Assembly (NCBI GenBank): GCA_034666665.1
Contig: JAXDLK010000005.1
Location: 1 to 59,036, forward strand
DNA from: Candidatus Binatota bacterium
GTDB taxonomy: Bacteria > Desulfobacterota > Binatia > JACPRU01
Length of the DNA: 59,036 bases
Direction of reading: 5' to 3'
Under the pieces are notes generated by a model. The model did not search any database and was not told the origin of the DNA. It was given only the letters and a program-made list of their open reading frames with translations. The position numbers were made by a program, and so were the translations under genes. How positions within the stretch are numbered: the stretch's first letter is position 1; each line of letters opens with the position of its first letter. Of the stretch, positions 26,441 through 58,205 are shown one piece after another.

Positions 26441-26497
26441 ACCTTCTCCCCTTTCCGCGCCGCTCAGCGGCGCCGCTCTAATGAGCAATTGGTGTAG

Positions 26498-26513: not shown

Positions 26514-26654
26514 CGTGTCAATCGAACGCCGCCCGGACGGGAAGCCACAACTGCATGAAATCGCAGCTCTTTCTCGAAGTAGTCCCAAAGAGGCGAGTAG
26601 GTAGTTCCACCGGAATTCGGGAATAATTCCGCAGCCCGGAGATTCTCCCCGACC

Positions 26655-40934: not shown

Positions 40935-41075
40935 CGCTCGGCGATCGCCGCGAAGGGCCCTCGCGCTTCTTAGGGACAAAACGCTGACCGGGCAAGCCGA
41001 AGCGTCACGAATGAACGGGTCCTCGGAGCCGTCGGCTGCGTTGACAGGTCGGAACGCCTCGGTTACAGCGACCAC

Positions 41076-42912: not shown

Positions 42913-42979
42913 CCGCGAGGCTCTGCGAGTGAACGCCAAGCTCTGCAAATGAGCGCGAAGCTCTGCAAATGAAGCGGAT
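42900..42979 (+). repeat. Four tandem 20-bp units spanning the VWA stop and the TPR start
   Basis: The units are gctgtccaaatgaccgcgag, gctctgcgagtgaacgccaa, gctctgcaaatgagcgcgaa and gctctgcaaatgaagcggat. They generate three 7-codon mini-ORFs, each overlapping its neighbour by ATGA or GTGA: 42909-42932 MTARLCE, 42929-42952 VNAKLCK and 42949-42972 MSAKLCK. Confidence 0.9.
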
Positions 42980-45290
42980 CCTTCGGTTCGTCGCGCTGCT
43001 GCTGTTTCCCACCATGGTCTCGGCAGCGACCCTCGCCGAGGTCTCCGGCGGCGTCGACCGCGCCGTACGCGGCGGCATGTCCGAGGCGGAGGAACAGTCG
43101 CTCCTCGGCAGCCTGGGTACGATCTCGGCGGAGGTCGCGGATCGCTACGATGCCTGGACGCGCAGTGGAAGCTCGGAGAGCCGCGGCGCGGCCACCGGTC
43201 TCGCCGACGCGCTACTCCCGGTCTTGGAGCGCCTGCACCGGTACCATCAGGACGCGATCGATCGGATGCAGAACGCGATCATCGCCGTCGATGGCAATCC
43301 CGAAGTCCTCTACGGACAGCGAGAGTGGCAGGTGCATCGAGGGTTCGCGCTCGCGTCCATGGGGCAGCTGGCCTGGCTCTACTATCGCTGCGCGATGCTT
43401 CACCCCGAGAAGAAGGAAGCGCGGAACGATTGGCTCCGCCGCGCGGTCGAGGGCTTCGGCGACTTCATCTTCGCCGAAGATCCGCGCTTGCGGGACGAGA
43501 GTCTCCTCGGGCGGGCGCTGGCGGAGCGCGAGCTCGGAGAGTGGGACCCGGCGAAGAACGATCTCCGTGCGGTGATCGAGCGCGGCAAGGGAGGACCGCT
43601 CTACTGGGCCGCGCGCGTGACGCTCGCCGAGGTCGCCGTCGCCGCGGGTGGGCCAGGGGCGCTGACCGAGACCGAGAACCTGCTTCGCGAGGCCGGCGGC
43701 GGATCCCTCGACACCATCCAGCAAGCGCGGTTCCTGCGCTTTCAGGCGCTGTCGGAAGCCGCCCGTCGCGGGGGTGGCGAGGGGCTCCGTCGCGAGGCCC
43801 GCGGTCTCGCCGCCGCGCTCGCCGAGGGAGGCCCGGTCTGGTCGAAGCGCGTCCAGGAGGTCGCGATGGGAGCGCACCGGGACCCGCGCGAGGTCCTCGG
43901 CGACAGCGCTCCGGCGGAATGGCAGGCGGCGGAGAACTTCGCGAGCGAGGACAAGCTCCGCGAGGCGGCGCCGCTCTACGAGCGCGTGCTCAAGAGCCCG
44001 GACCGGCAGCACGCCACGCTCGCACATCAGCGGCTCGGGGTCTGCTATTTCCGTCTCGGCCGGTTCGCCGATGCGGAGCGCGAGTTCCGGACGTTCCTGA
44101 ACGCGGCGCCCCGTTCGGCGCTCGCATCCGAGGCTTCGTTCCTGCGCTTCCGCGCCGCCGAGGGCGTGTACCGTGGCCGTCCGACGAAGGAGACGCGCGA
44201 GCTCTTCCGCGGCGCCGTGCAAGCGTTCGTGCAGGCATACCCAAAGCACGAGAGCGCCCACGAGGCGTTCTACCGCTGGGGCGAGCTGCTGCAGGCCGAC
44301 CGTCGCTGGCAGGAAGCGGCCGACGCGTACGCGCGCGTCCGGGGCGCACCGGTATTCGAGCTCCGCGCGGCGGCGTCGGAAGTCCAGTGCCTCGCCGAGG
44401 CGATGGTGGCGCCGGCGAAGGACGCAAAGCCCGAATGGTTCGAGCGCACGAGACGGCGCGCGCGAGAGGCCTTCTCCCGCTTTCAGAAGCTCGCCGCGCG
44501 CGCGCCGAAGGACGAGTCGATGCCGGACCTTCGCGCTCGTGCGACGCTGTCGAGCGCGATGGTGGAGGTGAGCGGTCCCGGAGGACGTCCGGAGCCGGCG
44601 GTCCAGGCGCTCGGAGGATTCGAGAAGACGTATCCGACGGCGAAGGACCTGCATCCGCTCGCCGGCGCGCTGCGGCTCTCCGCGCTGAACCAGCTCGGCC
44701 GTCTCGAGGAAGCGGAGACGAACCTCCCCGTGTGGTTGGCGAGCGTCGACGGAGCACGCCCGGAGATCAGCGAGAAGCTCGCGACGGCGTTCCTCCATAC
44801 CTCGATCGACTCCGCGCCGGACGACGCCGCGAAGAGCAGGCGCTGGGCGGTCTTGGCGTCGCGGGTCTTCGACCGACTGAAAGCAGAGGGCCGGCCGCTG
44901 CCCGCCGAGGCGAAGCCGGTGCTGGCGCCGATCTACACCGAGGAAGGCCGGCTCGCGGAGGCGGCGCAGCTCTACCGGGAGCTGCTCGCCACCACGCCAT
45001 CCTCGAAGTCCCTGCTGCGCAGTGCGGCGATGGTGGCGGACCAGCTCGGTGCCTTCGCGGAAGCTGCGGATTACTGGACGCGGCTGGCGAAACGCCAGGA
45101 GGTGGCTTCTCCCATCTGGTACGACGCGCGGCTGAACGGTGCCCGCGCGCTCTTTCGCGCGGGCAACAAGCAACGGGCGTGCGCAGAGATCCGTGAGGTG
45201 AACGCCTTCCGGCCCGACCTCCGCGATGCGGCGACGCGGACGAAGTACGATCAACTCGCCGCTCAGACGTGCGGTCCGGCGGCCTGCTGA
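42969..45290 (+). CDS. Secreted TPR-repeat protein (773 aa)
   Basis: The signal peptide is MKRILRFVALLLFPTMVSA. The body is all-helical and Ala/Leu/Arg/Glu-rich with recurring TPR-like W/Y..A...Y..L patterns. Confidence 0.8.
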   Translation: MKRILRFVALLLFPTMVSAATLAEVSGGVDRAVRGGMSEAEEQSLLGSLGTISAEVADRYDAWTRSGSSESRGAATGLADALLPVLERLHRYHQDAIDRMQNAIIAVDGNPEVLYGQREWQVHRGFALASMGQLAWLYYRCAMLHPEKKEARNDWLRRAVEGFGDFIFAEDPRLRDESLLGRALAERELGEWDPAKNDLRAVIERGKGGPLYWAARVTLAEVAVAAGGPGALTETENLLREAGGGSLDTIQQARFLRFQALSEAARRGGGEGLRREARGLAAALAEGGPVWSKRVQEVAMGAHRDPREVLGDSAPAEWQAAENFASEDKLREAAPLYERVLKSPDRQHATLAHQRLGVCYFRLGRFADAEREFRTFLNAAPRSALASEASFLRFRAAEGVYRGRPTKETRELFRGAVQAFVQAYPKHESAHEAFYRWGELLQADRRWQEAADAYARVRGAPVFELRAAASEVQCLAEAMVAPAKDAKPEWFERTRRRAREAFSRFQKLAARAPKDESMPDLRARATLSSAMVEVSGPGGRPEPAVQALGGFEKTYPTAKDLHPLAGALRLSALNQLGRLEEAETNLPVWLASVDGARPEISEKLATAFLHTSIDSAPDDAAKSRRWAVLASRVFDRLKAEGRPLPAEAKPVLAPIYTEEGRLAEAAQLYRELLATTPSSKSLLRSAAMVADQLGAFAEAADYWTRLAKRQEVASPIWYDARLNGARALFRAGNKQRACAEIREVNAFRPDLRDAATRTKYDQLAAQTCGPAAC

Positions 45291-45340
45291 AGGCGGGCGG
45301 ATCGCGAGCCGCGGGGAGCGAACGAGGGAGGAACGCACGA

Positions 45341-45994
45341 ATGGAAGTGGCTGGAACTTTGAGCGTGATGGATCTGATCCGCCAGGGCTGGTACGCGACG
45401 TACCCGCTGATCGGCTTCTCGGTGATCATGATGAGCATCGTGATCGAACGCATGTGGGCGCTCAGCCGCATCGGCCCCGGGGTCGAGCGGCTGACCGGCG
45501 AGGTCGTGGACCTGCTGCAGAAGGGCGACATCTCCGGGACCACGACGCTGCTCGAAGGGCGGCGGCGGCGGACGCCGGCCTCGCGCATGTACGCCGCGAT
45601 CGTGCCTCTGCTCGGCCGCGGGCCCCTCGACGAGGTGCTCGAGCTCGGCGAGCGGCGCCGGCTGGACGAGAGCCGCTGGTTCCGCCGCAACATCTGGGTG
45701 CTCGGAACGATCGCAGCTTCGGCGCCGTTCATCGGTCTCTTCGGCACGGTGGTCGGCATCATCAAATCGTTCCACCAGATGGCGGTGATGGGTACCGGCG
45801 GGTTCTCCGTGGTCGCCGCCGGCATCTCCGAAGCGCTGGTCGCGACCGCGCTCGGACTGATCGTCGCGATCGTCGCGGTGATCTTCTACAATTATCTCCA
45901 GGTGAAGGTCGGCAATCTCGACACCACGATGCGCGTCGGATTGGGCCAGGTGGTCGAGGCTGCCACCCTCGGGGGCGTACATGGCGCTCGGTAA
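45341..45994 (+). CDS. exbB: MotA/TolQ/ExbB proton-channel family protein
   Basis: GAGGGAGGA precedes ATG 45341. Motifs seen: GTIAASAPFIGLFGTVVGII and GISEALVATALGLIVAIVAVIFYNYL. Confidence 0.9.
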   Translation: MEVAGTLSVMDLIRQGWYATYPLIGFSVIMMSIVIERMWALSRIGPGVERLTGEVVDLLQKGDISGTTTLLEGRRRRTPASRMYAAIVPLLGRGPLDEVLELGERRRLDESRWFRRNIWVLGTIAASAPFIGLFGTVVGIIKSFHQMAVMGTGGFSVVAAGISEALVATALGLIVAIVAVIFYNYLQVKVGNLDTTMRVGLGQVVEAATLGGVHGAR

Positions 45995-46460
45995 GCTCGG
46001 CGGCGGTGACGGCGGCGAAGGCGCCGACGTCATGGCCGAGATCAACATCACGCCGCTCACCGACATCTTCCTGGTGCTGCTGATCATCTTCATGATCACG
46101 CAGTCGGCGCTGGTGGAGTCGGCCGCGAAGGTGAACCTGCCGAAAGCCACGCAGACCACGCAGGAATCCCGCGGCGTCACCGTGACCGTGACCAAGGACG
46201 AACGCATCTTCGTGAACCAGCTTCCCGTCGACGAGGCGCAGCTCCAGGGCACGTTGCAGGACCTGCTCGCCGACGATCCCCGGAAGCTCGTGATCCTCCA
46301 GGGGGACCGTTCCGTCATGCTCGGCGAGGCCGTCCGCCTGATGGACATCGCCAAGCGCGCCGGGGCGCAGGCGATCTCGATTTCGGCGGAGAAGGAAGAG
46401 TCCCCCGCCGGCTCCGCACCGGCCGTGCCCTCGGCCGCGCCGGCCGCGCCGGCGCAGTGA
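45981..46460 (+). CDS. exbD: ExbD/TolR biopolymer transport protein
   Basis: EINITPLTDIFLVLLIIFMI carries the conserved TM Asp. It overlaps exbB by 14 nt. Confidence 0.9.
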   Translation: MALGKLGGGDGGEGADVMAEINITPLTDIFLVLLIIFMITQSALVESAAKVNLPKATQTTQESRGVTVTVTKDERIFVNQLPVDEAQLQGTLQDLLADDPRKLVILQGDRSVMLGEAVRLMDIAKRAGAQAISISAEKEESPAGSAPAVPSAAPAAPAQ

Positions 46461-46461
46461 C

Positions 46462-47112
46462 GTGGACACCGCCCTCGACCTGATCCTCCATCTCGACCAC
46501 CACCTCGTCGCGCTGACACAGGCGGCCGGTGCGTGGACGTACGTGATTCTCTTTGCCATCGTCTTCTGCGAGACCGGCCTCGTGGTGACGCCGTTCCTTC
46601 CCGGCGATTCGCTGCTGTTCACGGTCGGGGCGATCGCGGCGAGCGGCGGCCTCGATCCGGCGGCTGCCGCCGTGCTGCTCGCCATCGCCGCGATCACGGG
46701 CGACTCGGTGAACTACTGGATCGGGAATGTCGTGGGCCCGCGGGTCTTCCGCCAGGAGGACTCGCGCTGGCTCGACCGGCGGCACCTCGACCGCACGCGC
46801 GAGTTCTTCGAGCGCTACGGCGCGAAGACCATCGTCATCGCCCGGTTCGTGCCGATCGTGCGAACGTTCGCGCCGTTCGTCGCGGGGATCGGCCGCATGG
46901 CGTACCGCCGGTTCTTCTTCTACAACGTCGCGGGCGGGATCGCCTGGGTCGGCGGGCTGGTCGGCGCCGGCTACTGGTTCGGCAATCTGCCGGCCGTGCG
47001 AGAGAATTTCTCGCTGGTGATCCTGATGATCATCGTGCTGTCGATCCTCCCGGCGATCGTCGAAGCTCTCCGCACACGCGTGCGGCCGCCTCGCCCGGCC
47101 GCGGGAGTTTGA
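46462..47112 (+). CDS. dedA: DedA family (VTT domain) membrane protein
   Basis: The GTG start lies 1 nt after the exbD stop. Motifs seen: FCETGLVVTPFLPGDSLLF, GAKTIVIARFVPIVRTFAPFVAG and YRRFFFYNVAGGIAW. Confidence 0.88.
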   Translation: MDTALDLILHLDHHLVALTQAAGAWTYVILFAIVFCETGLVVTPFLPGDSLLFTVGAIAASGGLDPAAAAVLLAIAAITGDSVNYWIGNVVGPRVFRQEDSRWLDRRHLDRTREFFERYGAKTIVIARFVPIVRTFAPFVAGIGRMAYRRFFFYNVAGGIAWVGGLVGAGYWFGNLPAVRENFSLVILMIIVLSILPAIVEALRTRVRPPRPAAGV

Positions 47113-47186
47113 GCGGAGCTCCGCCGCCGCGAGCGTCATTGAAGCGCCGACGGCGCTGAGCTATCAGTCGGCCTCTCGGACACCCC

Positions 47187-49160
47187 ATGAAAACGCGTTC
47201 GGGGCGCAAGTCGAAGGACGACCCTGTCGCGCGACGGAGAGCCGGCAAGCAGAAGCCCGATCTGCAGACGCCGCCTCCGAGAGCGGAGCGCCGGCGTCTG
47301 GAGAAGAAGAGCGGACGGGAAACGTCCGCCTTCGCGGCGCCGCTCCGGCTCGCGCTCGTGCCGCCACTGATCCTGGCGGCACTTTCCCTGCTCCCTCGGG
47401 TCGGCGCGAACCCATGGCTCAGGTCGTCCTTCTGGGGGGCAGCGCTGGCGCTCGTCCTCATGCAAGCGGTTCTCTGGCAGCAAGTGCGCCGCACCGGACG
47501 CACTCTCACCTGCCAGGTGGTTCCGCTGCCGGTGCATTGGGTGCAGGCCAGCATGCAGGCGTGCATCTACGCGTACTGGGGATCGTACTGGCCCGAGGTC
47601 TACCGCCACGTGCCGCTGATCGTGGCGCAGATCGTCCTCGTCTACGGCTTGGACATGCTGGTCTCCTGGTTCCGGCGGGACCAGTGGGTCCTCGGCTTCG
47701 GGCCGTTTCCCATCGTTCTCAGCACGAACCTCTTCATGTGGTTCAAGGACGACTGGTTCTTCCTCCAGTTCCTCATGGTGGCGACCGGAGTGCTCGGCAA
47801 GGAGTTCATCAAGTGGACGCGCGACGGCCGCCGCACGCACATCTTCAATCCGTCGGCGCTGTCGCTGTTCCTCTTCTCGGTGGGTCTGATCGTCACGCAC
47901 TCGACCGACATCACCTGGGGACCGGAGATCGCCGCCACGATCGGTCTTCCCCCGCGGATGTACCTGTGGATCTTCCTGGTCGGTCTGGTGGTCCAGGGGC
48001 TCTTCTCGGTGACGCTGGTCACGCTCTCCGCGGCCGCGACCTTGTTCGCGCTGAACCTCGTCTACACCGGGTCGACGGGGATCTATCACTTCATCATCAC
48101 GAACATCCCGGTGGCGGTCTTCCTCGGGCTCCATCTACTGGTCACCGACCCCGCGACGTCGCCGCGGAGACCATTCGGCAAAGTGCTGTTCGGCGCCGCG
48201 TATGGCGTCAGCGCCTTCGCGCTCTTCGGCCTGCTCGGCCGTGTCGGAATTCCCACCTTCTACGACAAGCTCCTCTGCGTCCCCGTCCTCAACCTGACCG
48301 TCCGGGTGCTCGATCGAATCAGCGACGCGCTCGCGGCACGCTTCCGTGTCCCGATGGTCTTTCCGGAGTGGAGCCCTCGGGCGAGTAACCTCGCGGCCAT
48401 GGCGGTTTGGGCGTCGCTCTTCGTGACCATGTCGGCGAGCGGCTTCCTCGGTCGCGATCACCCCGGACGCGATGCCGAGTTCTGGCGGCGCGCGTGCTCG
48501 GAGGGCCGGCGGAGCGGCTGCGAGACCTGGGTGATGTTCCTCGAAGCCTCCTGCCAGGCGGCGGACGGCGAATCCTGCAAGATGCTCGGGGACCTCAAGC
48601 GGGATGGCCGCGTCGTGCCGGCGAACCGGCTCGAAGCGGGGAAGAGCTTCGGTCGCGCCTGCGACGTGGGGCTCGCGGAAGGATGCGACGAGCTGAAACG
48701 GTTCGCCGACGCCGACGGGCGCGCGGTCTTCGAGAAGTCGTGCGCCGGCGGGGACAGCTACAGCTGCTTCGTCCTCGGCGAGGTGCACGCGCACGGCCTC
48801 GGCGTTTCACAGGACCGTCACGCGGCGATCGAGTTCTTCGAACGATCCTGTGCCGGCGGCTGGCCGCGCGGGTGCGGGCGCCTCGGCGAGGTGTACCTCC
48901 TCGGCGAAGGCACGCCCACGGACGTCGGCAAGGCGGTCGAGAATTTCGAGAAAGCCTGTCGAGGCGGCCACGCGGCGAGCTGCTCCGCCGTGGCCATGGT
49001 GTATCGCCGCGGGATCGGCGGCCTCGGCAACGAGACGCTCGCGGACGAACGTCAGCGGCAAGCGTGTCGCCTCGGGCTTTCCGCCGCGTGCTCGCCAGGA
49101 GACGCTCCCGCGTCCGCCGGGGCGGTGGCGCCAATCGACGTCCTTCGGCTCGGCGGCTAG
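47187..49160 (+). CDS. Polytopic membrane protein (RnfD/NqrB-like motifs) fused to C-terminal Cys-rich Sel1-like repeats
   Basis: The N-terminal tail is highly basic and is followed by ~10 TM helices. Motifs are HIFNPSAL (47844-47855 = FNPS) and LLVTDPATSP (48144-48164). The C-terminal ~225 aa carry six CxxxxxxxC pairs in the pattern A..fF.kAC.gG...gC..LG..Y..G.G, as in Hcp/SLR proteins. Confidence 0.75.
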   Translation: MKTRSGRKSKDDPVARRRAGKQKPDLQTPPPRAERRRLEKKSGRETSAFAAPLRLALVPPLILAALSLLPRVGANPWLRSSFWGAALALVLMQAVLWQQVRRTGRTLTCQVVPLPVHWVQASMQACIYAYWGSYWPEVYRHVPLIVAQIVLVYGLDMLVSWFRRDQWVLGFGPFPIVLSTNLFMWFKDDWFFLQFLMVATGVLGKEFIKWTRDGRRTHIFNPSALSLFLFSVGLIVTHSTDITWGPEIAATIGLPPRMYLWIFLVGLVVQGLFSVTLVTLSAAATLFALNLVYTGSTGIYHFIITNIPVAVFLGLHLLVTDPATSPRRPFGKVLFGAAYGVSAFALFGLLGRVGIPTFYDKLLCVPVLNLTVRVLDRISDALAARFRVPMVFPEWSPRASNLAAMAVWASLFVTMSASGFLGRDHPGRDAEFWRRACSEGRRSGCETWVMFLEASCQAADGESCKMLGDLKRDGRVVPANRLEAGKSFGRACDVGLAEGCDELKRFADADGRAVFEKSCAGGDSYSCFVLGEVHAHGLGVSQDRHAAIEFFERSCAGGWPRGCGRLGEVYLLGEGTPTDVGKAVENFEKACRGGHAASCSAVAMVYRRGIGGLGNETLADERQRQACRLGLSAACSPGDAPASAGAVAPIDVLRLGG

Positions 49161-49295: not shown

Positions 49296-50144
49296 CTAGG
49301 AAGTCTTCTCGGCCGCGGCCGGCTCTCGCGCGGCGGGCGCCACCTCGTACTCGAGGAGCTCGATCCGGGTGCGCTCCTTCTCGCGCCGCGCGTCGTCCCA
49401 CTGCTCGGTGCGGATGAGGCCCACCCCGGGGGCGTACCAATCGGAGTAATAGAAGACGATCTCCTCGCCGTTCTTGCCCGACCCCGGACCTTGCGTGGAA
49501 TAGGTGTCGATGCGGACGCAGTCCTCGAAGCTTCCCGCCGGCACCTGAACGGCCTTCGTCTCGATTGCCGCCGAGTGGCGATGGCTGACGTTGAAGCCGA
49601 GGCCGCTCATTCCGCCGCCCACGCGGAACGCCTGCGTCGCGCTCTCCCACTTCGCACCGTCGTCGAGGACCACGGGCAGATACCGGGTGTCGCCCGAGCC
49701 GCTGGCCTGCACGAGCTTGCCCGCCTGCAGCGTCATGAACATGCGGTGCAGGAATCCCTCGTTGCGAAAGTAGATGATCGGCTCCGACTCCTCGACGTAG
49801 AAGGGGCCGCCCTCGCTGGAGTAGCGCTCGGTCACCTCGATGCCTTCGCCGCCGAGCGCCTCGTAGTACTTCGGGCCGTGAACCTGGACCTTGTTCACGT
49901 AGGTCCACTTCTTCGCGAGGTCCAGGACCCGGTACGTCCAGTGACTTCGCGGCGTCAAGGGAAAATACTTCTCGACGGGGATGCGACTGGTCGCCGCGGG
50001 CTGCTTCGCGACGGGTCGGGGGCCGCCGCCCGGCCGCGACCAGCCACACGCGGCGGCGAGCGTCAGAGTCGCGAGGAGGAGGCAGGGGAGGGCGAGTCGG
50101 ACGCCCCGATCGCTCTCCCGCCGCTCTCCTCGCGTTTCGCTCAC
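49296..50144 (-). CDS. Hypothetical lipoprotein (282 aa) at the end of envelope module 2
   Basis: The lipobox is LATLTLAAAC. The gene starts 7 nt after the DUF1302 copy 2 stop. The product is beta-rich with the motif YYSDWYAPGVGLIRTE. I recognise no family. Confidence 0.65.
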   Translation of the reverse strand: MSETRGERRESDRGVRLALPCLLLATLTLAAACGWSRPGGGPRPVAKQPAATSRIPVEKYFPLTPRSHWTYRVLDLAKKWTYVNKVQVHGPKYYEALGGEGIEVTERYSSEGGPFYVEESEPIIYFRNEGFLHRMFMTLQAGKLVQASGSGDTRYLPVVLDDGAKWESATQAFRVGGGMSGLGFNVSHRHSAAIETKAVQVPAGSFEDCVRIDTYSTQGPGSGKNGEEIVFYYSDWYAPGVGLIRTEQWDDARREKERTRIELLEYEVAPAAREPAAAEKTS

Positions 50145-50151
50145 ACTCCGA

Positions 50152-52203
50152 TCAGAGCAGGTAGTACTCGAGCCGGACGAAGAGGTTGTCGCGGTCCGCG
50201 TACTTGTGAAGGAAGAGGAAGCTCTCGGCGTCCTTGCTTCCCATGTACATGATGTCGCCGAAGCGAATGGCGAACTTGTTGGTGAGGAAGTACTGCATCT
50301 GCAGCCAGGCGACGTGCGTCTGCGCGTTCACGTCGTAGCCGTACGCCCAGAAGGGACGCAGCTTCTGGTTCATGAAGAAGCCGGTCATGACGTACGTGAG
50401 CACCGGGTTGTAGTGCTGCATGCGATCGGTGACGGAATCGAGGAGCCCGATCTGTCCGTCGACGTGCGGGTAGTACTCGTTGAAGAACTGGAACGTGAAG
50501 AACCACTGGTCGGTCAGCCACGTCGACAGCCATTTCCGCGAGCGGATCCATGGCGGCGGTTTCGGATAGATGGTGCGCAGGTAGTCGAAACCGATCATGC
50601 TCCGCCACGCGCCGGTGGTGCGCTTCCCGTGACTCTCGAAGTCACGCGTCGCGGGGAAGTTGCCGGCACGAGGTCCGGCGAGGGGCGGCGCGCCATTCCG
50701 CGGCTCCTTCGTCGAGTAACTCTGCTCGACGCGCCAGATGAACCCCGTGTAGTCGAAGTCGTTATACGTGAGCGTCCCGCCGATGATGTGCGTCCACGGG
50801 TACCAGAAACCGACCATCTCGCAGCCGGTGGCGCCGTTGACGGTCTCGTACGCGGTGTTCGTCTGGTCGTCGAAATTGTAGTGCGGACCGTGCATGCCTT
50901 TGAGGATGATCGTCGGCCTTTGATCGTAGATGCACCGCGCGACCGCTCGGTCCTGCCCGTCCGGGACACCGTTGCCGTCGTTGTCGGGTGTCGCGAGATC
51001 CGCTGCGGCTCGCGCCAGCGAGTAGTGGTCGTCGGGACCAATCGCGTCGTCCGCTTCGGCGCCGGTGCGGAAGTTGTTCATGTTCCCGTTCTCGTCGGAC
51101 GGCCGCGCGGGATCGAAGAGATCGGACACACGCAGCGCCGTACCCGGGACTTCGCTCTTCTTGAAGATGTAGTTGAGCGTGAAGTCGAGACCGGCGAACG
51201 TCTGGCCACCGAAGCGAAAGCCGAACATGCTCGTATCCACATCGAGCACGTTCGTGGGCACTCCGTTCTGCAGAAGATAGACGAAGTCACCACAACGCAG
51301 GCCCTGGGGTCCGTCCGCGCACCCAGGTGCGGGCGCGAGATCCGCCTGGTCTGGTGCATCCGTCCGATGCGTGCCGACGCGCGTCACCTCCCACGGAGCG
51401 CGCACCATGCGCCAGGGTAGGATGTTCGGCCGGCGGAACGTCGGTGAGTTGAACGTTGGCGAGCCGCTCGGACATCCGTCGGCCGAGGGGCAGTAGTTTT
51501 GGTCGACACCGATGCGGAACGCCTCGCTCACCAGGATCCGGTCCGTGAGCGGCCGCCAGTTGGGTGACCAGAAGGCTTCCAAGTACGAGTTCTCCGCAAC
51601 GAATGGCACCGGCCCGATCGAGTACAGGGCCTTGGCGATCCACAGCGGCTCTCGGTAGTCGTCGAAGTCCTCGCCGATGAGACCATTCTGGTCGAGACGC
51701 AGCGGGTTGATGACGTCGAGCGACCGGAAGAGGTCCGCCTCGCCCCATACCACCTGCTGCTTGCCGAGCCGCAGCGACAGACCGTCGATCGGCTCGGTGA
51801 AGGAGACGTCGAAGAACAGCTCCCGAGGAATCTTGCCTTCCGGGAACCGGAAGTCGTCGCGCTGGTATCCGCGCTTCTTGTACCTGTCGACGAGGTCGTA
51901 CACCGCGTCGTAACGCGCGCGGTACAGCATGTTGAAGCGGACGTTGTTGATCGGCCCCGCCGTCACCCCTTGTGGCAGCAGGAAGTAACGCAGGTCGAAG
52001 CGGAATTCGTTCCGCCACTGCGCCCACTCGATATCGTTGATCGAGTTATGATGGAACGTGTTCTGAACCGTGACCGTCGAGGCAGCCTCGATTCGCTGGT
52101 CCCCCGACATGTACGAGGCGTGCGCCATCCCTGCGCACGCCAGCATCGTCAGCATGGCCACCGCGGGCGCCCACCGCGGCAGTCTTCGTCCGTGCCCTTT
52201 CAT
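50152..52203 (-). CDS. DUF1302-family outer-membrane protein (copy 2)
   Basis: ATG 52203 follows AAGGGGGG. The signal peptide ends ACAGMAHA. LRLGKQQVVWGEADLFRSLDVINPL is paralogous to copy 1. Confidence 0.8.
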   Translation of the reverse strand: MKGHGRRLPRWAPAVAMLTMLACAGMAHASYMSGDQRIEAASTVTVQNTFHHNSINDIEWAQWRNEFRFDLRYFLLPQGVTAGPINNVRFNMLYRARYDAVYDLVDRYKKRGYQRDDFRFPEGKIPRELFFDVSFTEPIDGLSLRLGKQQVVWGEADLFRSLDVINPLRLDQNGLIGEDFDDYREPLWIAKALYSIGPVPFVAENSYLEAFWSPNWRPLTDRILVSEAFRIGVDQNYCPSADGCPSGSPTFNSPTFRRPNILPWRMVRAPWEVTRVGTHRTDAPDQADLAPAPGCADGPQGLRCGDFVYLLQNGVPTNVLDVDTSMFGFRFGGQTFAGLDFTLNYIFKKSEVPGTALRVSDLFDPARPSDENGNMNNFRTGAEADDAIGPDDHYSLARAAADLATPDNDGNGVPDGQDRAVARCIYDQRPTIILKGMHGPHYNFDDQTNTAYETVNGATGCEMVGFWYPWTHIIGGTLTYNDFDYTGFIWRVEQSYSTKEPRNGAPPLAGPRAGNFPATRDFESHGKRTTGAWRSMIGFDYLRTIYPKPPPWIRSRKWLSTWLTDQWFFTFQFFNEYYPHVDGQIGLLDSVTDRMQHYNPVLTYVMTGFFMNQKLRPFWAYGYDVNAQTHVAWLQMQYFLTNKFAIRFGDIMYMGSKDAESFLFLHKYADRDNLFVRLEYYLL

Positions 52204-52356
52204 CACACTACCCCCCTTTTTCCCTGGTATCGCCGCGAGGGACCCGCACGAAGGCATAATGGGCGCATGGAGATCGGCCGGCGCCCTCCGGCCCGGGTTC
52301 CGCGTCGCGGTTAACTCACCACACCTCTTCTCTTCCCGTCGACGTTTCGAATCGCG

Positions 52357-53466
52357 TCAGCCATTGGTCTTCCATTCCCAAGTCTTGCCCATGTCACCGC
52401 TGGTCAACACCAGACCGTGTCCGCCGACCGCGACCCCGACACCGCTCGGATCGAAAGCCACTGCGGAAATCCAGGTGAACACGCCTGGAGGCAGCTCCGC
52501 CGCCTTCCAGCCGCTCTCGGCATTGCCGCGCAGCACGATGCCGCTCGCACCGACGATCAGCGCGTCCCCATCGGCGAGATACTTGATGTCGTAGAGCGGC
52601 TCGAGAACGGGCGACTTGAAGAAGTTCCAAGTCTGGCCGCCGTCCTGGGTGGTGATGATCATGCCGTAGGTGCCGACCGCCACCCCGTTCTGCCGGTCGC
52701 GCATGCGCAGGCAGAGGATCGTCGGCAGCGACATGATGTCGCGGTACATGCTGGTGAGGAGCGACTGGTGCTGGGCTCCCCACGTCGCGCCGCCGTCCTC
52801 GGTGAAGCGGATCTGGCCGAACTCGCCGCCGACCCATCCGGTCTTCTCGTCCAAGAAGTCGACCGAGTAGAAGATCGGGTCGCTGATCGCCAGCGACATG
52901 TCCTCGCGGACGCCGATCTGCGACATCGGGATCTTCTCGGACTTCCACGTCTGTCCGCCGTCGCCGGTCGAGATCACCGTCGAAACGTCGCCGACGGCCC
53001 AGCCCTTCTGATCGGTCGGGAAGTCCACGTCGAAGAGAGACGCCTCCGTGCCGCTCTCCTCCTTCGCCCACGACTGCCCGCCGTCCTCGGTCTTGAAGAC
53101 GTTGCCGACGTGGCCCACGCCCCATCCCTTGCCTCCGTCGACGAAGCTCATCCGCGTGAGGCTCACCTTCGTCGCCGGGTTCAGCTTCCGGAACGTGCCG
53201 CCCGCGTCGTCCGTGCGCCAGAGCTTGCTCTGATAGCCGAGCAGCAAGAAGCTCTTGTTGCCGAGCGGCTTGACGTCGAAGAACTTGTCCGTGATCGCGA
53301 ACATCGGCGGCGGTGGCAGGACCTTCTCCTCCTGCCGGCACGCAGTCACCGCGAGCGGCAGCACCAGCGAGGCGAACAACCAAGCGATCGCGCCTCGTCG
53401 ATTCCGAGAAACACTCACTGCACCATGCGGCGCCATCGGGAGCCGCCGGCCGCTACTCGTTTCCAT
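52357..53466 (-). CDS. Ycf48-like / BNR-repeat beta-propeller lipoprotein (copy 2)
   Basis: AGGAGGA lies 9 nt before ATG 53466. The lipobox is LPLAVTAC. BNR motifs seen: TDDAGGTF, EDGGQSW, GDGGQTW, EDGGATW, QDGGQTW and GDMGKTW. Confidence 0.85.
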   Translation of the reverse strand: METSSGRRLPMAPHGAVSVSRNRRGAIAWLFASLVLPLAVTACRQEEKVLPPPPMFAITDKFFDVKPLGNKSFLLLGYQSKLWRTDDAGGTFRKLNPATKVSLTRMSFVDGGKGWGVGHVGNVFKTEDGGQSWAKEESGTEASLFDVDFPTDQKGWAVGDVSTVISTGDGGQTWKSEKIPMSQIGVREDMSLAISDPIFYSVDFLDEKTGWVGGEFGQIRFTEDGGATWGAQHQSLLTSMYRDIMSLPTILCLRMRDRQNGVAVGTYGMIITTQDGGQTWNFFKSPVLEPLYDIKYLADGDALIVGASGIVLRGNAESGWKAAELPPGVFTWISAVAFDPSGVGVAVGGHGLVLTSGDMGKTWEWKTNG

Positions 53467-53781
53467 TATCCGAGATCCTCCTGTGCGTTGGATCGATCCG
53501 GCCGGAGCGATCGTGGGATCGCGCAGCCTCGCCGCACCGAGCCTGTCCACTCGAGCCTTCCGCCCCCATCGAAGCCTGGCTTACCTACAATGCTTTCGGC
53601 GTGCCCGCCAGCCCTGAAACGACGCGGCGTTCCGCGTTTCCCTTCCGTGGATCGATGCTCCGGAAAATACCCCGACCCTCGCTCCACCCCAGCGGAAGTG
53701 CGAAGGAATCGACAGGTAGCTTCAGGCGCGGCACCCGGTCAAGAGCCGATCCGCTCGACCTCGTCGGGCAGCGGCGATCGG

Positions 53782-54189
53782 TTACGCGTCGAGCAGGTCC
53801 TGGCGGCCGGCGCGTTCGAGCAACTCGCGGTACCGCGGGAACACCTGGCGGGCGACCGGCACCAGCTTGATGATCTTGGCGATCGGCCCTTTCGCGCGGA
53901 TCTCCCCCTTGAGAAGCGCGAGGGCGATGTCGACCTTGCCGAGCCAGAAGCGATGACCGACATCGCCCGTGGTGGTCATCTCCACCGTCGGCTTCGCTCC
54001 GTCGTCGCCACGGGTCACCGTGCCGTTCACCATGTCGATCACGAGCGCCGCAGGCGGGTCCGTGAACTTGAGCTTGAGGACGACGCCCGAGTCCGCGAAC
54101 CGCTTCCGCACCTCGGCGTCGGCGAACGCCTCCTCGAAGATGGCGCCCATGTACCGGTAGAGCTCGTCCGCGTCGGCAAATGCTGTCAT
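53782..54189 (-). CDS. SCP2 sterol/lipid-carrier domain protein
   Basis: The 135-aa product reads VVLKLKFTDPPAALVIDMVNGTV...GDVGHRFWLGKVDIALALLKGEIRAKGPIAKIIKL, a typical SCP2 fold signature. Confidence 0.8.
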   Translation of the reverse strand: MTAFADADELYRYMGAIFEEAFADAEVRKRFADSGVVLKLKFTDPPAALVIDMVNGTVTRGDDGAKPTVEMTTTGDVGHRFWLGKVDIALALLKGEIRAKGPIAKIIKLVPVARQVFPRYRELLERAGRQDLLDA

Positions 54190-54210
54190 GCGTTCCCCGC
54201 GTCACCGCCG

Positions 54211-54891
54211 TTACAGCGACGACTCCTTGGAGGGCTGCGCCGCCGGCGCCACCCAGTCGATCAGCTTCTGCCTGAGAGCGATCGTCACCGCGTGGGCGCG
54301 GTTCTGCGCGCCGATCTTCGCATAGATGTTTCGCAGGTGCGCCTTGACCGTCACCTCCGTGATGCCGAGACGTTCCGCGATCTCCTTGTTCGCCGCGCCC
54401 GCGGCGATCAGCTCGAGGATCTCGATCTCGCGGTCCGAGAGCGGATGCTTCTGGGTTTCGAGCCGTGCGTCCTCGGCGAGCTTTCGCAAGACCGGCAGGG
54501 TGACGGCAGTCATCAGATACCCTTGCCCGGCGCTCACCGTACGCACCGCGCGAACGACTTCCTCTCCGGGGGCTTCCTTCAGCAGGTAGCCGAGCGCCCC
54601 GGCGGCGATCGCCTCGTTCACGTAGGCGGGGCTGTCGAACATCGTCAGCACCAGCACCTTGACCGAGGGCATCTCCGAGTGGACCCTGCGGATCGTGGCG
54701 AGCGCGCCTCCGCCCGGCATGCCGAGGTCGAAGATCGCGACGTCCGGCTTCAGCTGCCGCACCGCCTTCAACGCGTCGGCGGCATTGCCGGCCACTCCCA
54801 TCACCTGGATGTCGCGCTCCCGCTCGAGGAGCAGGCGCACCCCGTCGCGGAATACCTGATGGTCGTCAGCGTGAAAAACTCGAATGGGCAT
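54211..54891 (-). CDS. NarL/FixJ (LuxR-type HTH) response regulator
   Basis: The REC domain reads ADDHQVFRDG..DVAIFDLGMPGG. The LuxR HTH reads LSDREIEILELIAAGAANKEIAERLGITEVTVKAHLRNIYAKIG. ATG 54891 is preferred over the TTG at 54897. Confidence 0.9.
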   Translation of the reverse strand: MPIRVFHADDHQVFRDGVRLLLERERDIQVMGVAGNAADALKAVRQLKPDVAIFDLGMPGGGALATIRRVHSEMPSVKVLVLTMFDSPAYVNEAIAAGALGYLLKEAPGEEVVRAVRTVSAGQGYLMTAVTLPVLRKLAEDARLETQKHPLSDREIEILELIAAGAANKEIAERLGITEVTVKAHLRNIYAKIGAQNRAHAVTIALRQKLIDWVAPAAQPSKESSL

Positions 54892-56203
54892 TTCCAAGTC
54901 CTAGCTGTGGGGGGTCGGGGACCCAGGCGGAGACCCGTGTCCCGCGGACGACCGCGGCACCGATCCAAAGTCGCCCGCCGAGCGCCTCGACCCGTTCGCG
55001 CATCGTGCGCAGGCCGAGACCGGGAGCGCGCGTCGCGACGCCCCTGCCGTCATCCTCGATCGTGAGCTGCCATCCGCCGTCGCTGCGAGCGAAGCGGACC
55101 GCCGTCGCGCGGGCGCCCGCGTGCCGGCGGACGTTGGTGAGCGCCTCCTGGGCGACTCGGTAGAAGGCGAGCGCGCTTTCCGGCTCCGGACGCGAGTCCG
55201 CGTCGATCTCGAGCGTGAAGCGGATCGAGCTGAGCGCTCGCTCGCGGGTCAGCAGATCGCGTAGCGCCTCGGCGATGCCGAGGTCGTCGAGTAGCTGCGG
55301 CCGCAGGTCCGCGAGGAACGTGCGTAGATCCTTGACGGTGGCCTCCGTGGTGCCGATCAGCCGGTCCACCTCGACGGCGGCGGCCGCGTCTCGAGGGTGG
55401 ACGACCTCGCGCAGACGACGGAGACCGTGGAGCAAGGTGAAGAGGGCGCCCCCGCCGCGATCGTGAAGGTCGCCGGCGATTCGCCGCCGCTCCTCTTCCG
55501 CCGATCGCAGGAGACGGTGGAGGAGGCTTCGCTGGGCCGCATGGCCGGCGAGCACCTCCGCGAGGCGCGCCCGTGCTTCCTCGACGAGCGGGGTCACGAA
55601 CGCGACGGCGAGAAACACGTAGCTCATCTTGGCGACGAGAAGCCCGGGGCGGAACCGGTGCTCGGTGGCGGCGAGGATCGCGAGCTCGGCGGCGTACACG
55701 CCGACGATCCCGAGCGCCGTGCGGAGCGGCAGTCGCATGCAGACGCTCACCATCGCCAGGCACATGAACGTGGTGAGGATGCTGTCGAGTGCTCCGCTGC
55801 AGTAGCTCATGCCCGCGAGATAGAGGCTGTCGACGAGCGCGGTTCCGTAGCTCAAGTGGGGCCGTTGACTGCCGCGGGACAGCGAGAAGGCGACGGCGAA
55901 GTTGTAGGCCACCGCCGTGGCCATCAGAGCGAAGAACGGCCCCCAAGCGACGGGCGCCGGCGCCAGCCATGCGAGCACCGGGATCGCGGCCAGCGACAGC
56001 CATCGGAGGCGGACCGCCAGCCCCTCCGCGGCGAAACGGAAACGGACCTCCGCGTCCGCGACCGTGTCGTCGCCGACGGACGCGGACGGCGACCCGAGCT
56101 GCGCGGGCGGAACCGAAGCGGCCGGTGGAGCGAAGTCGTCCGGCGGGGCCGGCTGCAGGGCTTCCGCTGCGCTACTTCGGCGACCAGAAAGCGGTATGGC
56201 CAT
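54866..56203 (-). CDS. Membrane-embedded sensor histidine kinase, HisKA_3 type (DesK/LiaS-like architecture)
   Basis: It has about 5-6 TM helices and no sizeable periplasmic domain. The H-box is RRRIAGDLHDRGGGAL. The HATPase region reads EALTNVRRHA...EDDGRG. The start is uncertain because the ORF overlaps the upstream gene by 32 nt. Confidence 0.85.
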   Translation of the reverse strand: MAIPLSGRRSSAAEALQPAPPDDFAPPAASVPPAQLGSPSASVGDDTVADAEVRFRFAAEGLAVRLRWLSLAAIPVLAWLAPAPVAWGPFFALMATAVAYNFAVAFSLSRGSQRPHLSYGTALVDSLYLAGMSYCSGALDSILTTFMCLAMVSVCMRLPLRTALGIVGVYAAELAILAATEHRFRPGLLVAKMSYVFLAVAFVTPLVEEARARLAEVLAGHAAQRSLLHRLLRSAEEERRRIAGDLHDRGGGALFTLLHGLRRLREVVHPRDAAAAVEVDRLIGTTEATVKDLRTFLADLRPQLLDDLGIAEALRDLLTRERALSSIRFTLEIDADSRPEPESALAFYRVAQEALTNVRRHAGARATAVRFARSDGGWQLTIEDDGRGVATRAPGLGLRTMRERVEALGGRLWIGAAVVRGTRVSAWVPDPPQLGLGNAHSSFSR

Positions 56204-57458
56204 TCCCGATCTGCCGCGGTGCGGCCTTCCCGTCGGCTGACATCACGTAGACGCGCGGGGAAGTCCAGGGCTCCCCCTGCTGGTAGTCGGCCTCGGCGAT
56301 CCCGGAGAAGACGAAGGCGCGGCCGTCCGGCGACCAAACGCGATGCGAGAGCGCGTACTGGTCGAAGTACTGGAAGACCATCGTCAGCGGACGGGACGGG
56401 AAGAAGCGCCCGAGGTCACGTGACTTCCGGGTCGCGACGTCCACGACCGCCCAGACCCAGTCACCCTTCTCGATATCGCGCTTCGCGTAGAGGATCCGGT
56501 CGCCCTTCGGCGACCAGAAGAACGCCGCGATCGCTCCACCGGTGGCGAGGCTCGACGACTTGCCGGAACGAGCGTCGACCAGCCGGATCTCCTTGTACAG
56601 GGGCTCTTGTTCCGAGGTCGTGGCGAGCGCCAGCACCGGGCTGGTCGGCGACCAAACGAAGGCGACGCGCTGGGAGATGTCGGAAACGGAGTGAGGCTTT
56701 CCGCCTTCCGGATTCGCCACCACCAGCTGGGCTTGCGCCTTGTCCGTGACCCTGCCGTACGCCATCCAATCCCCGTCCGCGGACCAAGACGGCGGGCCGA
56801 ACGTCGCGGGCGTGAGCGAGATCACCTCGCGCTTGCCGCTCGACAGCAAGAGCAGCTTCACCGAATGACCCGCCGGGGAGTCGGGATCGTTGCCGACGTG
56901 AAGCAGCAGCGAGGTCGCGTCCTTCTTCCAGTCGAAGAAGAACGGTACCCCGTCGGCGATGCTCTTCGGCTTCTCTCCCGTGGGCGAGGGCCACAGGGAG
57001 AGGGAGAACCCGCTCGGGTTCTGCAGCAGCAGCGCCAAACGAGTCCCGTCCGGAGACCAGTACGCGTAGATCGGGCGGAGCTTCGGGCTCGAATAGACGT
57101 CCAGGATCCGGCTGCTCGCCGCATCGAAGACGTAGAGGCCGTCGATCAGCTGCTCGCCCTCCTGGCTGACGCGGAAGACCATCACTCGTTTGCCGTCGGG
57201 CGACCATGCCGGCCAGGTGTAGAAGTCGTCTCCCTGGTCGCCTTGAGTGGGCGAGAAGGAAATCGCATGCACCGGGCCGCCCTTGGTGAGCTTCCGCGGA
57301 TCGGTACCGTCGGGGTGGACGACCCAGAGCTCGCCTTCGAGGTCGACGTAGGCGATGAGGCCGGGTGCGCCGGCATCCTCTCCGGCAACGGCGAGGGACA
57401 GGCACACGGCGACCGCGACGAGCGCGGCTGCGGCAGCGAGCCGCCGGGGGAAGGTCAA
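56172..57458 (-). CDS. TolB-like PD40/WD40 beta-propeller protein, secreted
   Basis: Recurring WSPDG/WSADG/WSPKG blades are present. The TTG start at 57458 follows AAGAGGGTGAA and gives LTFPRRLAAAAALVAVAVCLSLAVA, a signal peptide. The upstream part of the 608-aa track ORF is Arg-rich shadow. Confidence 0.75.
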   Translation of the reverse strand: MTFPRRLAAAAALVAVAVCLSLAVAGEDAGAPGLIAYVDLEGELWVVHPDGTDPRKLTKGGPVHAISFSPTQGDQGDDFYTWPAWSPDGKRVMVFRVSQEGEQLIDGLYVFDAASSRILDVYSSPKLRPIYAYWSPDGTRLALLLQNPSGFSLSLWPSPTGEKPKSIADGVPFFFDWKKDATSLLLHVGNDPDSPAGHSVKLLLLSSGKREVISLTPATFGPPSWSADGDWMAYGRVTDKAQAQLVVANPEGGKPHSVSDISQRVAFVWSPTSPVLALATTSEQEPLYKEIRLVDARSGKSSSLATGGAIAAFFWSPKGDRILYAKRDIEKGDWVWAVVDVATRKSRDLGRFFPSRPLTMVFQYFDQYALSHRVWSPDGRAFVFSGIAEADYQQGEPWTSPRVYVMSADGKAAPRQIGNGHTAFWSPK

Positions 57459-57488
57459 TCGTTCACCCTCTTTTCCTTTTCGCGTAAA

Positions 57489-57504
57489 AGCCCGCGACTT
57501 GCCA
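57489..57504 (-). promoter_or_regulatory. Candidate sigma-54 -24/-12 element upstream of the TolB-like gene
   Basis: The minus strand reads TGGCAAGtcgcGGGCT. The GG-N10-GC spacing is correct, but the -12 flank is GGGC instead of TTGC. It lies about 30 nt upstream of the TTG start. Confidence 0.3.
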
Positions 57505-57554
57505 GTGCTCGTTCGCTCTCGATAAGGAGATCCGGAAGAGCGACGTTGCTGCAG

Positions 57555-58205
57555 ATGCGATTTACGGGGCGCGGCGCGCCGGCGGTTTTGTCGATCGCGC
57601 TTTTCGTGGCGCCTGCCGCGGCGTCCGAGCGTTCGTACTCGATGGACGCGTTCGCACGCGACGTGAGCGCGGCGGTTCATGCCGGAGGAGGGGAGGGCCG
57701 AACGCTCGAGCGGGTGGCGGCGGCGGTCACGCACTTCCTTCGCGACGGAGCTCTCGACGATCGCTACCAGCAGCCGCATCCCGGCCTCGAGGTGACGACC
57801 TATCTCGCCCGCCTCGCTCCGGATGCGTCGTTCTCGATCGCCGTTCTGGTTCTGCGTCCGGGAGCGAGGACTCCCGTGCACGACCATCACACCTGGACGG
57901 TATGGGGCACGCTCCGCGGACACGAGCACGAGGTCAGGTACACGCGCTCGACGGTGAAAGACGGGGAGTTCCCGGCGCTGCAGGTCGTTGCCGAGCACAC
58001 GCTCCCGGAAGACGGAGTGTCCGTGATCCCGTCACCGCCGGGCGACGTCCACCGCGTCGAGAACGTGGGCACGATCCCGTCCGTGTCCATTCACGTGCAC
58101 GGCGCCGACATCAGCACGCAAACCCGTTCCCGCTACGATCTCGAGCGGCATGCGGTGATTCCGTTCGTGCAGAGCTACGAGAGACCAGATTCGGAGGCAC
58201 GATGA
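57555..58205 (+). CDS. Cupin, cysteine-dioxygenase-type-I-like (3-His metal site)
   Basis: Motifs seen: RTPVHDHHTW and PPGDVHRVENVG, within a double-stranded beta-helix. The start is uncertain. ATG 57555 would add a signal-peptide-like MRFTGRGAPAVLSIALFVAPAAA. ATG 57642 would give a cytoplasmic form. Confidence 0.7.
   Translation: MRFTGRGAPAVLSIALFVAPAAASERSYSMDAFARDVSAAVHAGGGEGRTLERVAAAVTHFLRDGALDDRYQQPHPGLEVTTYLARLAPDASFSIAVLVLRPGARTPVHDHHTWTVWGTLRGHEHEVRYTRSTVKDGEFPALQVVAEHTLPEDGVSVIPSPPGDVHRVENVGTIPSVSIHVHGADISTQTRSRYDLERHAVIPFVQSYERPDSEAR

Follow-up and report, generated by a model that had tools for sequence, protein, structure and literature searches.

Gene content of module 2

We analysed a window of 59,036 nucleotides from a Candidatus Binatota bacterium, namely contig C5 of a metagenome-assembled genome (MAG; 3.63 Mb, 387 contigs, 84% complete; hereafter G000). 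Our subject is a minus-strand cluster within it, module 2, which encodes a BNR lipoprotein, a DUF1302 outer-membrane protein and a second lipoprotein, with the gene of an SCP2-fold protein upstream. A first-pass annotation, made from the sequence alone, had proposed these four genes as an envelope module paralogous to another one in the window (module 1), and all four proved to be real at the coordinates given here. As the window has about 67% G+C, open reading frames (ORFs) were ranked by third-position GC (GC3), and the four ORFs of module 2 all have coding-type composition (GC3 0.85-0.90).

53782..54189, minus strand: 135-aa SCP2-fold protein (AlphaFold and Foldseek)
52357..53466, minus strand: BNR_m2, Ycf48-like BNR lipoprotein of 369 aa (PSII_BNR, E 4e-24)
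50152..52203, minus strand: DUF1302_m2, DUF1302 outer-membrane protein of 683 aa (PF06980, 66.1 bits against a 23.2-bit cut-off)
49296..50144, minus strand: 282-aa DUF3108-like lipoprotein with a YmcC-type fold (PF21347, predicted model, Foldseek)

The start codon of BNR_m2 is an ATG behind AGGAGG and its lipobox reads LAVTA-C; the ATG of DUF1302_m2 follows a purine-rich Shine-Dalgarno sequence, and the protein carries a Sec signal peptide with AHA/S at its end; and the lipobox cysteine of the 282-aa lipoprotein, Cys33, is invariant in 52 homologs. The 7-nt gap reported between the DUF1302 stop and the lipoprotein start is indeed there, and the lipoprotein gene is probably translationally coupled to the gene before it. 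Read from the sequence, module 2 is a predicted three-gene operon for exported proteins: the BNR lipoprotein, the DUF1302 outer-membrane protein and the DUF3108-like lipoprotein. A scan of positions 49000-54400 gave no sigma-70 promoter-like sites, and terminator-like sites in the same interval were no more frequent than in shuffled sequence. NCBIfam offered no meaningful model match for the lipoprotein, the SCP2 protein, DUF1302 or DUF1329; its Ycf48 model NF010237 matched BNR_m2 at E 3e-25, below the equivalog cut-off.

A DUF1302 gene in the place of an RND permease

We compared module 2 with its counterparts in sister genomes of the same family (G004, G002, G007 and G001), in a genome of genus g3 (G003) and in contig loci (numbered with an L), among them two long ENA contigs, L024 and L028. 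The conserved order in the sister loci and the two ENA contigs is (HHH)-PD40-HisKA_3 kinase-LuxR regulator-BNR-X-lipoprotein, with orthologs of BNR_m2 at 54-59% identity and of the lipoprotein at 55-61%. X is an HAE3/MMPL permease of about 800 aa in G004, G002, G007, G001, L024 and L028, and in L024 the BNR, RND and lipoprotein genes overlap by 8 and 4 nt. Among the genomes of the family, X is DUF1302 only in G000 and G003; DUF1302 also directly precedes the lipoprotein in the independent Logan contigs L051 (with a 4-nt overlap) and L052. An assembly artefact behind this arrangement can be rejected, as four independent assemblies carry it.

Elsewhere in the class, G181 has BNR-RND-lipoprotein-lipoprotein, G372 has BNR-RND-lipoprotein-ABC-2 transporter, and a large clade has p153-BNR-lipoprotein-ABC ATPase-ABC-2 permease-GldG-like protein-DUF4340. 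Since 5 of the 7 sister genomes have the RND form, as do G181 and G372 from two other families that serve as outgroups, it is the ancestral one. The first-pass annotation had described partner swapping between duplicated modules with a different terminal lipoprotein in module 2; sister synteny, outgroups and the DUF1302 tree together give another direction, in that DUF1302 displaced the RND gene in a pre-existing BNR-RND-lipoprotein operon.

The tree of DUF1302 paralogs (maximum likelihood) places the slot copies of G000 and G003 as sisters (support 96/99). DUF1302_m2 has four closer paralogs on other G000 contigs (45-51% identity, against 29% to the DUF1302 protein of module 1), and each of these pairs with its own ortholog in G003; the module 1 protein, on a long branch, and the copies on contigs C126 and C347 form remote groups. 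The sister relationship of the slot copies and the pairing of the orthologs imply that both the five-member subfamily and the slot arrangement are older than the split of the two genera. DUF1302 apparently took the RND place once, in the common ancestor of the G000 genus and genus g3, and by its position in the tree the slot copy comes from this five-member subfamily, whose other members frequently have DUF1329 in front of them (as some of the G000 paralogs and G003 orthologs do). In the BNR tree the seven slot-linked BNR proteins form one clade with 100/100 support.

The displaced permease was retained. An ortholog of it, RND2 (66-68% identity), opens contig C126 of G000, and the ortholog in G003 stands alone, with neither BNR nor lipoprotein beside it; judging from these positions, the slot permease is unlinked, not lost. 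A few kb from RND2 on C126 (1-8407), on the opposite strand, stands a third BNR-DUF1302 pair; behind this pair come a hydrophobic protein of 134 aa and putative acyl-CoA dehydrogenase and enoyl-CoA hydratase ORFs (not checked against Pfam).

The conserved partner of the lipoprotein, by gene order, is the BNR gene and not DUF1302. Of the 30 loci whose flanks are long enough, 25 have a BNR gene upstream of the lipoprotein, directly or one gene removed, and the pairing holds whether the transporter is of the RND, DUF1302 or ABC-2 type. In G372 (L056, C7:88000-101000) a single strand carries BNR, RND, lipoprotein, ABC ATPase, ABC-2 permease, GldG-like protein and DUF4340, an operon that, from its gene content, bridges the RND-type and ABC-2-type forms. 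Two further loci of the family are irregular: L015 (G002, C16:986000-1005900) has a tandem duplication with regulator, BNR, RND, truncated lipoprotein, truncated BNR, RND and lipoprotein, and in L016 (G007, C21:69000-88000) the BNR and slot RND genes are split over several frames, either as pseudogenes or through long-read indel errors.

The lipoprotein belongs to a DUF3108-like family

The lipoprotein, left unclassified in the first-pass annotation, matches Pfam PF21347 (DUF3108_like) above the gathering threshold, with 32 bits against a 27-bit cut-off. It is single copy in G000, where a six-frame genome search confirmed the match. The AlphaFold model, built with the 52 homologs, has a mean pLDDT of 84 (core above 90) and predicts an all-beta structure from about residue 55 to 267. 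In Foldseek the model comes closest to the Bacteroidales lipoproteins 4fvs (BDI_3050; E 6e-8) and 3fzx (BF2203; E 2.5e-7), both with probability 1.00, followed by E. coli YmcC (2in5, E 3e-3); the YmcC-like fold of 3fzx is the depositors' own description. A profile of the family also found 4fvs (E 1.5e-9) and 3fzx (E 1.4e-5) among PDB sequences, and the C-terminal signature PAGxF-x-C...WYxPxxG-VR-x-EQ is common to these two and the lipoprotein of module 2. The three structural relatives (4fvs, 3fzx and 2in5) are lipoproteins of the same fold, but they are only 9-18% identical to the protein studied here. We know of no linkage of the Bacteroidales and E. coli YmcC-fold proteins to BNR or RND genes.

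The first-pass annotation had placed this lipoprotein in the slot held by DUF1329 in module 1 and had called for a structural comparison with DUF1329 and LolA. Descent from DUF1329 finds no support, BLASTP being negative and hhalign against the DUF1329 profile giving a probability of 0.2%, and the protein belongs instead to the DUF3108-like, YmcC-fold family; the equivalence with a DUF1329 slot is at most an analogy. In the structural comparison the YmcC-type fold came out best. Weaker Foldseek matches, all with low TM-scores, comprised EPDR1 (E 0.015), DUF1849 and, at E 0.15-0.23, LolA3, LprG, RseB and LolA, so that the predicted model bears a loose architectural resemblance to LolA-like proteins, which does not amount to membership of that group.

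An exhaustive profile search returned 3067 representative clusters at E<=1e-3 and 35 at E<=1e-30, which describes a small subfamily within a sizeable superfamily. Among 400 sampled genomes of the phylum, this subfamily turned up in the same class only. A single narrow peptide pattern, run against a species-level genome collection, found 19 loci, all in MAGs labelled Deltaproteobacteria, Binatia, Polyangiaceae or Thermodesulfobacteriota. None of the papers found for DUF3108 characterises the family, as far as titles and abstracts tell, and the NCBI label 'TapB family protein' on one homolog could not be traced in the literature.

Two observations on the family deserve mention in their own right. 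A second cysteine, C209, is invariant across the 52 homologs; it lies in the PAGxF-x-C motif, is present in 4fvs and 3fzx as well, and has no other cysteine to pair with in the mature lipoprotein. Some of the representative proteins (P0235, P0242, P0243, P0248 and P0301), of 850-1330 aa, carry four to six tandem DUF3108-like stretches, and these large proteins are, by their sequences, putative multi-repeat relatives of the small lipoprotein.

The SCP2 protein

The SCP2 domain had been taken as the most direct hint that the cargo of the module is a lipid or sterol-like molecule. The fold stands: the Pfam SCP2 score (PF02036) is 19.9 bits, just under the 21.3-bit gathering threshold, many homologs at 41-48% identity pass it, the AlphaFold model has a pLDDT of 92.8, and all 42 Foldseek matches in the PDB at E<=1e-3 are SCP2-fold proteins or domains, with TM-scores mostly between 0.5 and 0.74. 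They include yeast, insect and human SCP2, the SCP2 domain of UbiJ and the C-terminal domains of alkylsulfatases. Thermus TT1886 (1wfr/2cx7) and the UbiJ domain (6h6o) share the alpha/beta SCP2 fold, the size of about 135 aa and the cytoplasmic location; compared with stand-alone SCP2 proteins, the protein studied here differs in its Pfam score just below threshold and in the absence of the cassette that surrounds its relatives.

The hint to the cargo is unlikely to hold. The protein has neither signal peptide nor hydrophobic segment, and its gene starts 21 nt after the stop of the response regulator, with 315 nt separating it from BNR_m2. None of the sister loci has a counterpart, and a search of 60 other genomes of the class, among them all 7 family members, did not find the subfamily. 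The closest homologs (60-64% identity) lie in a cassette of a regulator, SCP2, a protein of about 400 aa, a protein of about 165 aa and usually a ferredoxin, and a 56% homolog lies within a soluble di-iron monooxygenase cluster. These features (no signal peptide, the spacing, no counterpart in sister loci or class, and homologs in cytoplasmic oxidation cassettes) lead to the simplest reading, that SCP2 is a cytoplasmic passenger gene, apparently a recent acquisition of this lineage, and not a conserved component of the envelope module. It may share the regulator transcript.

The cassettes themselves (L048, 1203-3647; L049, 5023-8454; L029, 6001-8139) have as regulator a TetR or a Response_reg+GerE protein, and a 94-aa ferredoxin closes them in L048 and L049. 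The proteins of about 400 and 165 aa have no Pfam match and look like a candidate pair of uncharacterised enzymes. Their only relatives in G000 are weak and on other contigs.

The upstream regulatory block

The genes upstream of module 2 continue the conserved order of the sister loci:

56172..57998, minus strand: PD40/TolB-like beta-propeller protein, first gene of the conserved regulatory block (Pfam PD40)
54866..56203, minus strand: HisKA_3 histidine kinase with about five closely spaced transmembrane segments (Pfam HisKA_3 and HATPase_c)
54211..54897, minus strand: NarL/LuxR-type response regulator (Pfam Response_reg and GerE)
53467..53781, minus strand: 315-nt intergenic region before the BNR gene, without sigma-70 consensus

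The PD40 gene has orthologs at the same position in L015-L017, L024 and L028. The hydropathy segments of the kinase span residues 68-207, as in the intramembrane-sensing type, and its orthologs (55-63% identity) are directly upstream in the sister loci. Orthologs of the response regulator, at 78-81% identity, directly precede the BNR gene in all sister loci, and it is likely from this position that the regulator controls the BNR operon. The 315-nt region is the probable promoter region of the BNR-DUF1302-lipoprotein operon; repeats in it were limited to short, chance-level matches. A sigma-54-like element, GGGCACGCCGAAAGCA at 53591-53606, is the best site (8 of 11 consensus positions), and was rejected as evidence of co-regulation with module 1, as it has no conserved counterpart upstream of BNR in 7 sister loci.

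The super-locus and module 1

An ortholog of window gene 40140-41450 stands no more than about 1 kb behind the lipoprotein in the sister loci; the chain continues with a spermine-synthase-like/TPR protein, RND1, a dCache/HAMP kinase and a sigma-54 regulator. The window carries the same chain plus three lineage-specific insertions: SCP2, the block 41674-49160 and a thiolase-P450-mutase block. The second of these, whose genes have no homologs in the sister loci, parts the lipoprotein from gene 40140-41450 and so breaks the ancestral super-locus. The relevant features are:

41674..49160, plus strand: inserted block of VWA, TPR, ExbB, ExbD, VTT/DedA and a Sel1-repeat polytopic membrane protein (Pfam)
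40140..41450, minus strand: 436-aa protein (tblastn 33-41% to the post-lipoprotein gene in L012, L013, L024, L028, L051 and L052)
34920..37310, minus strand: RND1, HAE3/MMPL RND permease, start approximate (Pfam MMPL, E 4e-29)
25109..26548, minus strand: DUF1329 LolA-like protein, last gene behind the sigma-54 regulator (PF07044, E 3e-44)
21619..23553, plus strand: DUF1302_m1, outer-membrane barrel of module 1 (PF06980, 66.7 bits)
20422..21558, plus strand: BNR_m1, Ycf48-like lipoprotein (PSII_BNR, E 1.6e-39)
19666..20160, plus strand: small secreted protein before BNR_m1 (54% identity, E 5e-58, to p153 of L022)

RND1 matches the HAE3 model TIGR00921 at E 3e-49, below the model cut-off, and its orthologs in the sister loci (65-69% identity) lie 4-5 kb beyond the lipoprotein. 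It is the only RND gene of the window (34920 to about 37300), as the first-pass annotation had it; for the genome as a whole the statement fails, G000 encoding several more HAE3/MMPL permeases, along with 8 DUF1302 loci, 7 DUF1329 loci and three Ycf48-like BNR genes of about 360 aa.

The paralogy of the two modules was seen correctly. The motifs named for it are present (LSLRLGKQQVVWGEA and VSLRIGRQQIVWGEA in the DUF1302 pair, DKFFDVK in both BNR proteins); BNR_m1 and BNR_m2 are 38% identical over 332 aa (E 2e-71), and DUF1302_m1 and DUF1302_m2 29% over 394 aa (E 1e-25). These low identities and the BNR and DUF1302 trees agree with an ancient, not a recent, duplication of both pairs. In the BNR tree BNR_m1 groups with the ABC-2-linked BNR proteins (support 96/96, with a long-branch caveat), and it is 49% identical to the ABC-2-linked BNR of L022. 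From this sequence evidence, module 1 appears as a derivative of a locus of the p153-BNR-lipoprotein-ABC-2 type. The protein at 19666-20160 and p153 of the ABC-2-type loci share the identical stretch AKVPNILSSQDKFLNQLG. The ABC-2/GldG operon of G000 is unlinked, on contig C93.

Module 1 (DUF1329, DUF1302_m1 and BNR_m1) lies behind the sigma-54 regulator in the window and in G003, but not in G004 or G001; its DUF1329 has an 82% ortholog at the same position in G003 and none there in G004 and G001. DUF1302 therefore stands, in the G000/G003 lineage, directly behind two BNR genes whose relatives precede genes of inner-membrane transporters: in module 2 it replaced the RND gene, and in module 1 it occupies the place where relatives have the lipoprotein and ABC-2 genes.

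Relation to known envelope systems

The closest described system is AmeABCD of Castellaniella defragrans, which consists of the DUF1302 protein AmeA, the DUF1329 protein AmeB, the COG4447 BNR protein AmeC and the HAE3 RND protein AmeD; its deletion lowers monoterpene tolerance, and it behaves as an exporter (PMC6394551). The same four families are co-fit in several bacteria, with clusters in Shewanella, Kangiella and Pseudomonas (10.1101/072470). Like these, module 2 encodes DUF1302 and a Ycf48-like BNR protein together, in a genome with HAE3 RND proteins and in a neighbourhood concerned with hydrophobic compounds; unlike AmeABCD, it has neither DUF1329 nor RND genes and has an unrelated DUF3108-like lipoprotein after DUF1302, the gene order being BNR-DUF1302-lipoprotein as against DUF1302-DUF1329-BNR-RND. 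DUF1302 has been predicted to form an 18-strand barrel that resembles AlgE and docks DUF1329, no structure of the family having been solved according to the same source (PMC13499233).

In Pseudomonas putida, PP_0765/PP_0766 (DUF1302/DUF1329) and PP_2018/PP_2019 (BNR/RND) matter on fatty esters, and a LuxR-type regulator (PP_0767) adjoins DUF1302 (10.1101/2020.07.04.188060). As in module 2, barrel and pump are encoded at separate places; there, however, BNR stays with RND and DUF1329 with DUF1302, whereas in module 2 BNR goes with DUF1302 and the partner is a lipoprotein of another family. A 'Nanopod' cluster in the benzene-degrading Desulfobacterota ORM2a comprises a porin-like protein, DUF1329, a YCF48-related protein and an MMPL transporter (PMC13101534). 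It likewise brings a Ycf48-like protein together with an outer-membrane pore protein, in a hydrocarbon-related context, but has DUF1329 and the MMPL pump and lacks the DUF3108-like lipoprotein. AupA/AupB (PMC5989066) was set aside as a relative, the paper making no mention of DUF1302 or DUF1329.

Nearest of all is the Binatia triad of BNR, HAE3 RND and DUF3108-like lipoprotein (L024, L028, G004, G001, G002, G007, G181 and G372). Module 2 shares with it the orthologous BNR and lipoprotein genes, the upstream PD40-HK-LuxR block and the tight coupling of the lipoprotein to the preceding gene; it differs in that its middle gene is DUF1302 and its permease is encoded elsewhere. Module 2 is a variant of the AmeABCD-type envelope system, with a putative transport function.

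A proposed mechanism and its alternatives

From the gene identities, folds, export signals and synteny, and from the polarity and single origin of the swap, we infer the interactions, cargo, transport direction and regulation as follows. An RND permease encoded elsewhere, with RND2 on C126 and RND1 (34920-37300) as candidates, would extract a hydrophobic molecule from the inner membrane; the BNR propeller would dock on the periplasmic face of the transporter; the half-barrel lipoprotein would shield the cargo or hand it over; the DUF1302 barrel would provide the passage across the outer membrane; and the two-component system would set expression by membrane state. A hydrophobic-cargo theme is reasonable for the modules. 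Taken as a whole, the explanation that module 2 is a BNR-DUF1302-lipoprotein operon for hydrophobic transport, derived from the RND form, with RND acting in trans, is the best we can offer, and we think it rather probable.

Several points weigh against it. No RND gene lies between 49296 and 54189, the nearest being 12 kb off, so the energy source is assumed in trans; contig C126 starts inside the RND2 gene; and G000 is a MAG, 84% complete and in 387 contigs. The likeness of the lipoprotein to the lipid carriers LolA, LprG and RseB is weak (Foldseek E 0.15-0.23, TM about 0.2-0.34), and the five most divergent lipoprotein copies (25-34% identity) have no BNR neighbour.

The lack of an RND gene in the operon would also agree with uptake: DUF1302 and the lipoprotein would then form a passive or facilitated outer-membrane gate with BNR as periplasmic scaffold, and the swap would have changed export into import. 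Extensive lipid and hydrocarbon catabolism is encoded close by (P450, thiolase, B12 mutase), and the 8 DUF1302 and 7 DUF1329 loci of G000 amount to an expansion typical of substrate-uptake families. The defects of P. putida DUF1302/DUF1329 mutants on fatty esters are compatible with uptake (10.1101/2020.07.04.188060), and the comparable cluster of the benzene degrader is highly expressed and has been proposed for benzene transport across the envelope (PMC13101534). Elsewhere, however, the BNR and lipoprotein genes go with inner-membrane RND or ABC-2 transporters, and the two came through the arrival of the barrel intact; both G000 and G003 retained the displaced RND gene, and the AmeABCD data point to export (PMC6394551), so that we consider an uptake gate unlikely. 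It is still less likely that DUF1302 landed in the slot by chance recombination and that the three products have no joint function. Other lineage-specific insertions at the locus (SCP2, the ExbBD/Sel1 block and the thiolase-P450-mutase block) and the expansion and mobility of DUF1302 within these genomes would agree with such a neutral mosaic, but two genera have preserved the arrangement, with proteins 55-61% identical, two further independent assemblies show it, the spacing is tight both here (7 nt) and in L051 (4-nt overlap), all three ORFs are intact with coding composition, and the DUF1302 gene of module 1 likewise stands behind a BNR gene in the same lineage.

A functional part for SCP2, as a soluble carrier delivering a lipid or sterol-like cargo to the envelope machinery, was attractive, since the fold is genuine, the gene lies on the same strand immediately upstream of BNR, it is probably co-transcribed with the likely regulator of the module, and the locus has its hydrophobic-cargo theme. 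Such a carrier would nevertheless be cytoplasmic beside three exported proteins, is missing from all sister loci, belongs to a subfamily not found in the 60 other genomes of the class, and is separated from BNR by the 315-nt gap; its closest homologs, in ferredoxin cassettes or di-iron monooxygenase clusters, are never beside BNR or DUF1302. Of all the explanations considered, we hold this one to be the least probable, and a tempting false lead is thereby removed.

Biological significance

The DUF1302/DUF1329/BNR/HAE3-RND system is widespread in Gram-negative bacteria and has been linked with the ability to grow on hydrocarbons, terpenes and fatty esters or to tolerate them. Our analysis of the RND-derived operon adds a third periplasmic partner family, the DUF3108-like lipoprotein with its YmcC-type fold, which travels with BNR. 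It also brings out the modularity of the system, as the gene beside the BNR-lipoprotein pair may be an RND pump, an ABC-2 exporter or an outer-membrane barrel. This conserved pair with an interchangeable transporter partner is the most useful content of the locus, and the natural swaps name the pairs for interaction tests, namely BNR with DUF1302 and the lipoprotein with DUF1302. One may go further and propose, tentatively and as a rather doubtful possibility, that BNR and the DUF3108-like lipoprotein form a portable periplasmic adaptor pair, able to serve an HAE3 RND permease, an ABC-2/GldG-type exporter or a DUF1302 barrel. If this were true, inner-membrane transporters and outer-membrane barrels would be physically joined through BNR as a hub, which would fill a gap in the account of how the envelope system reaches across the periplasm.

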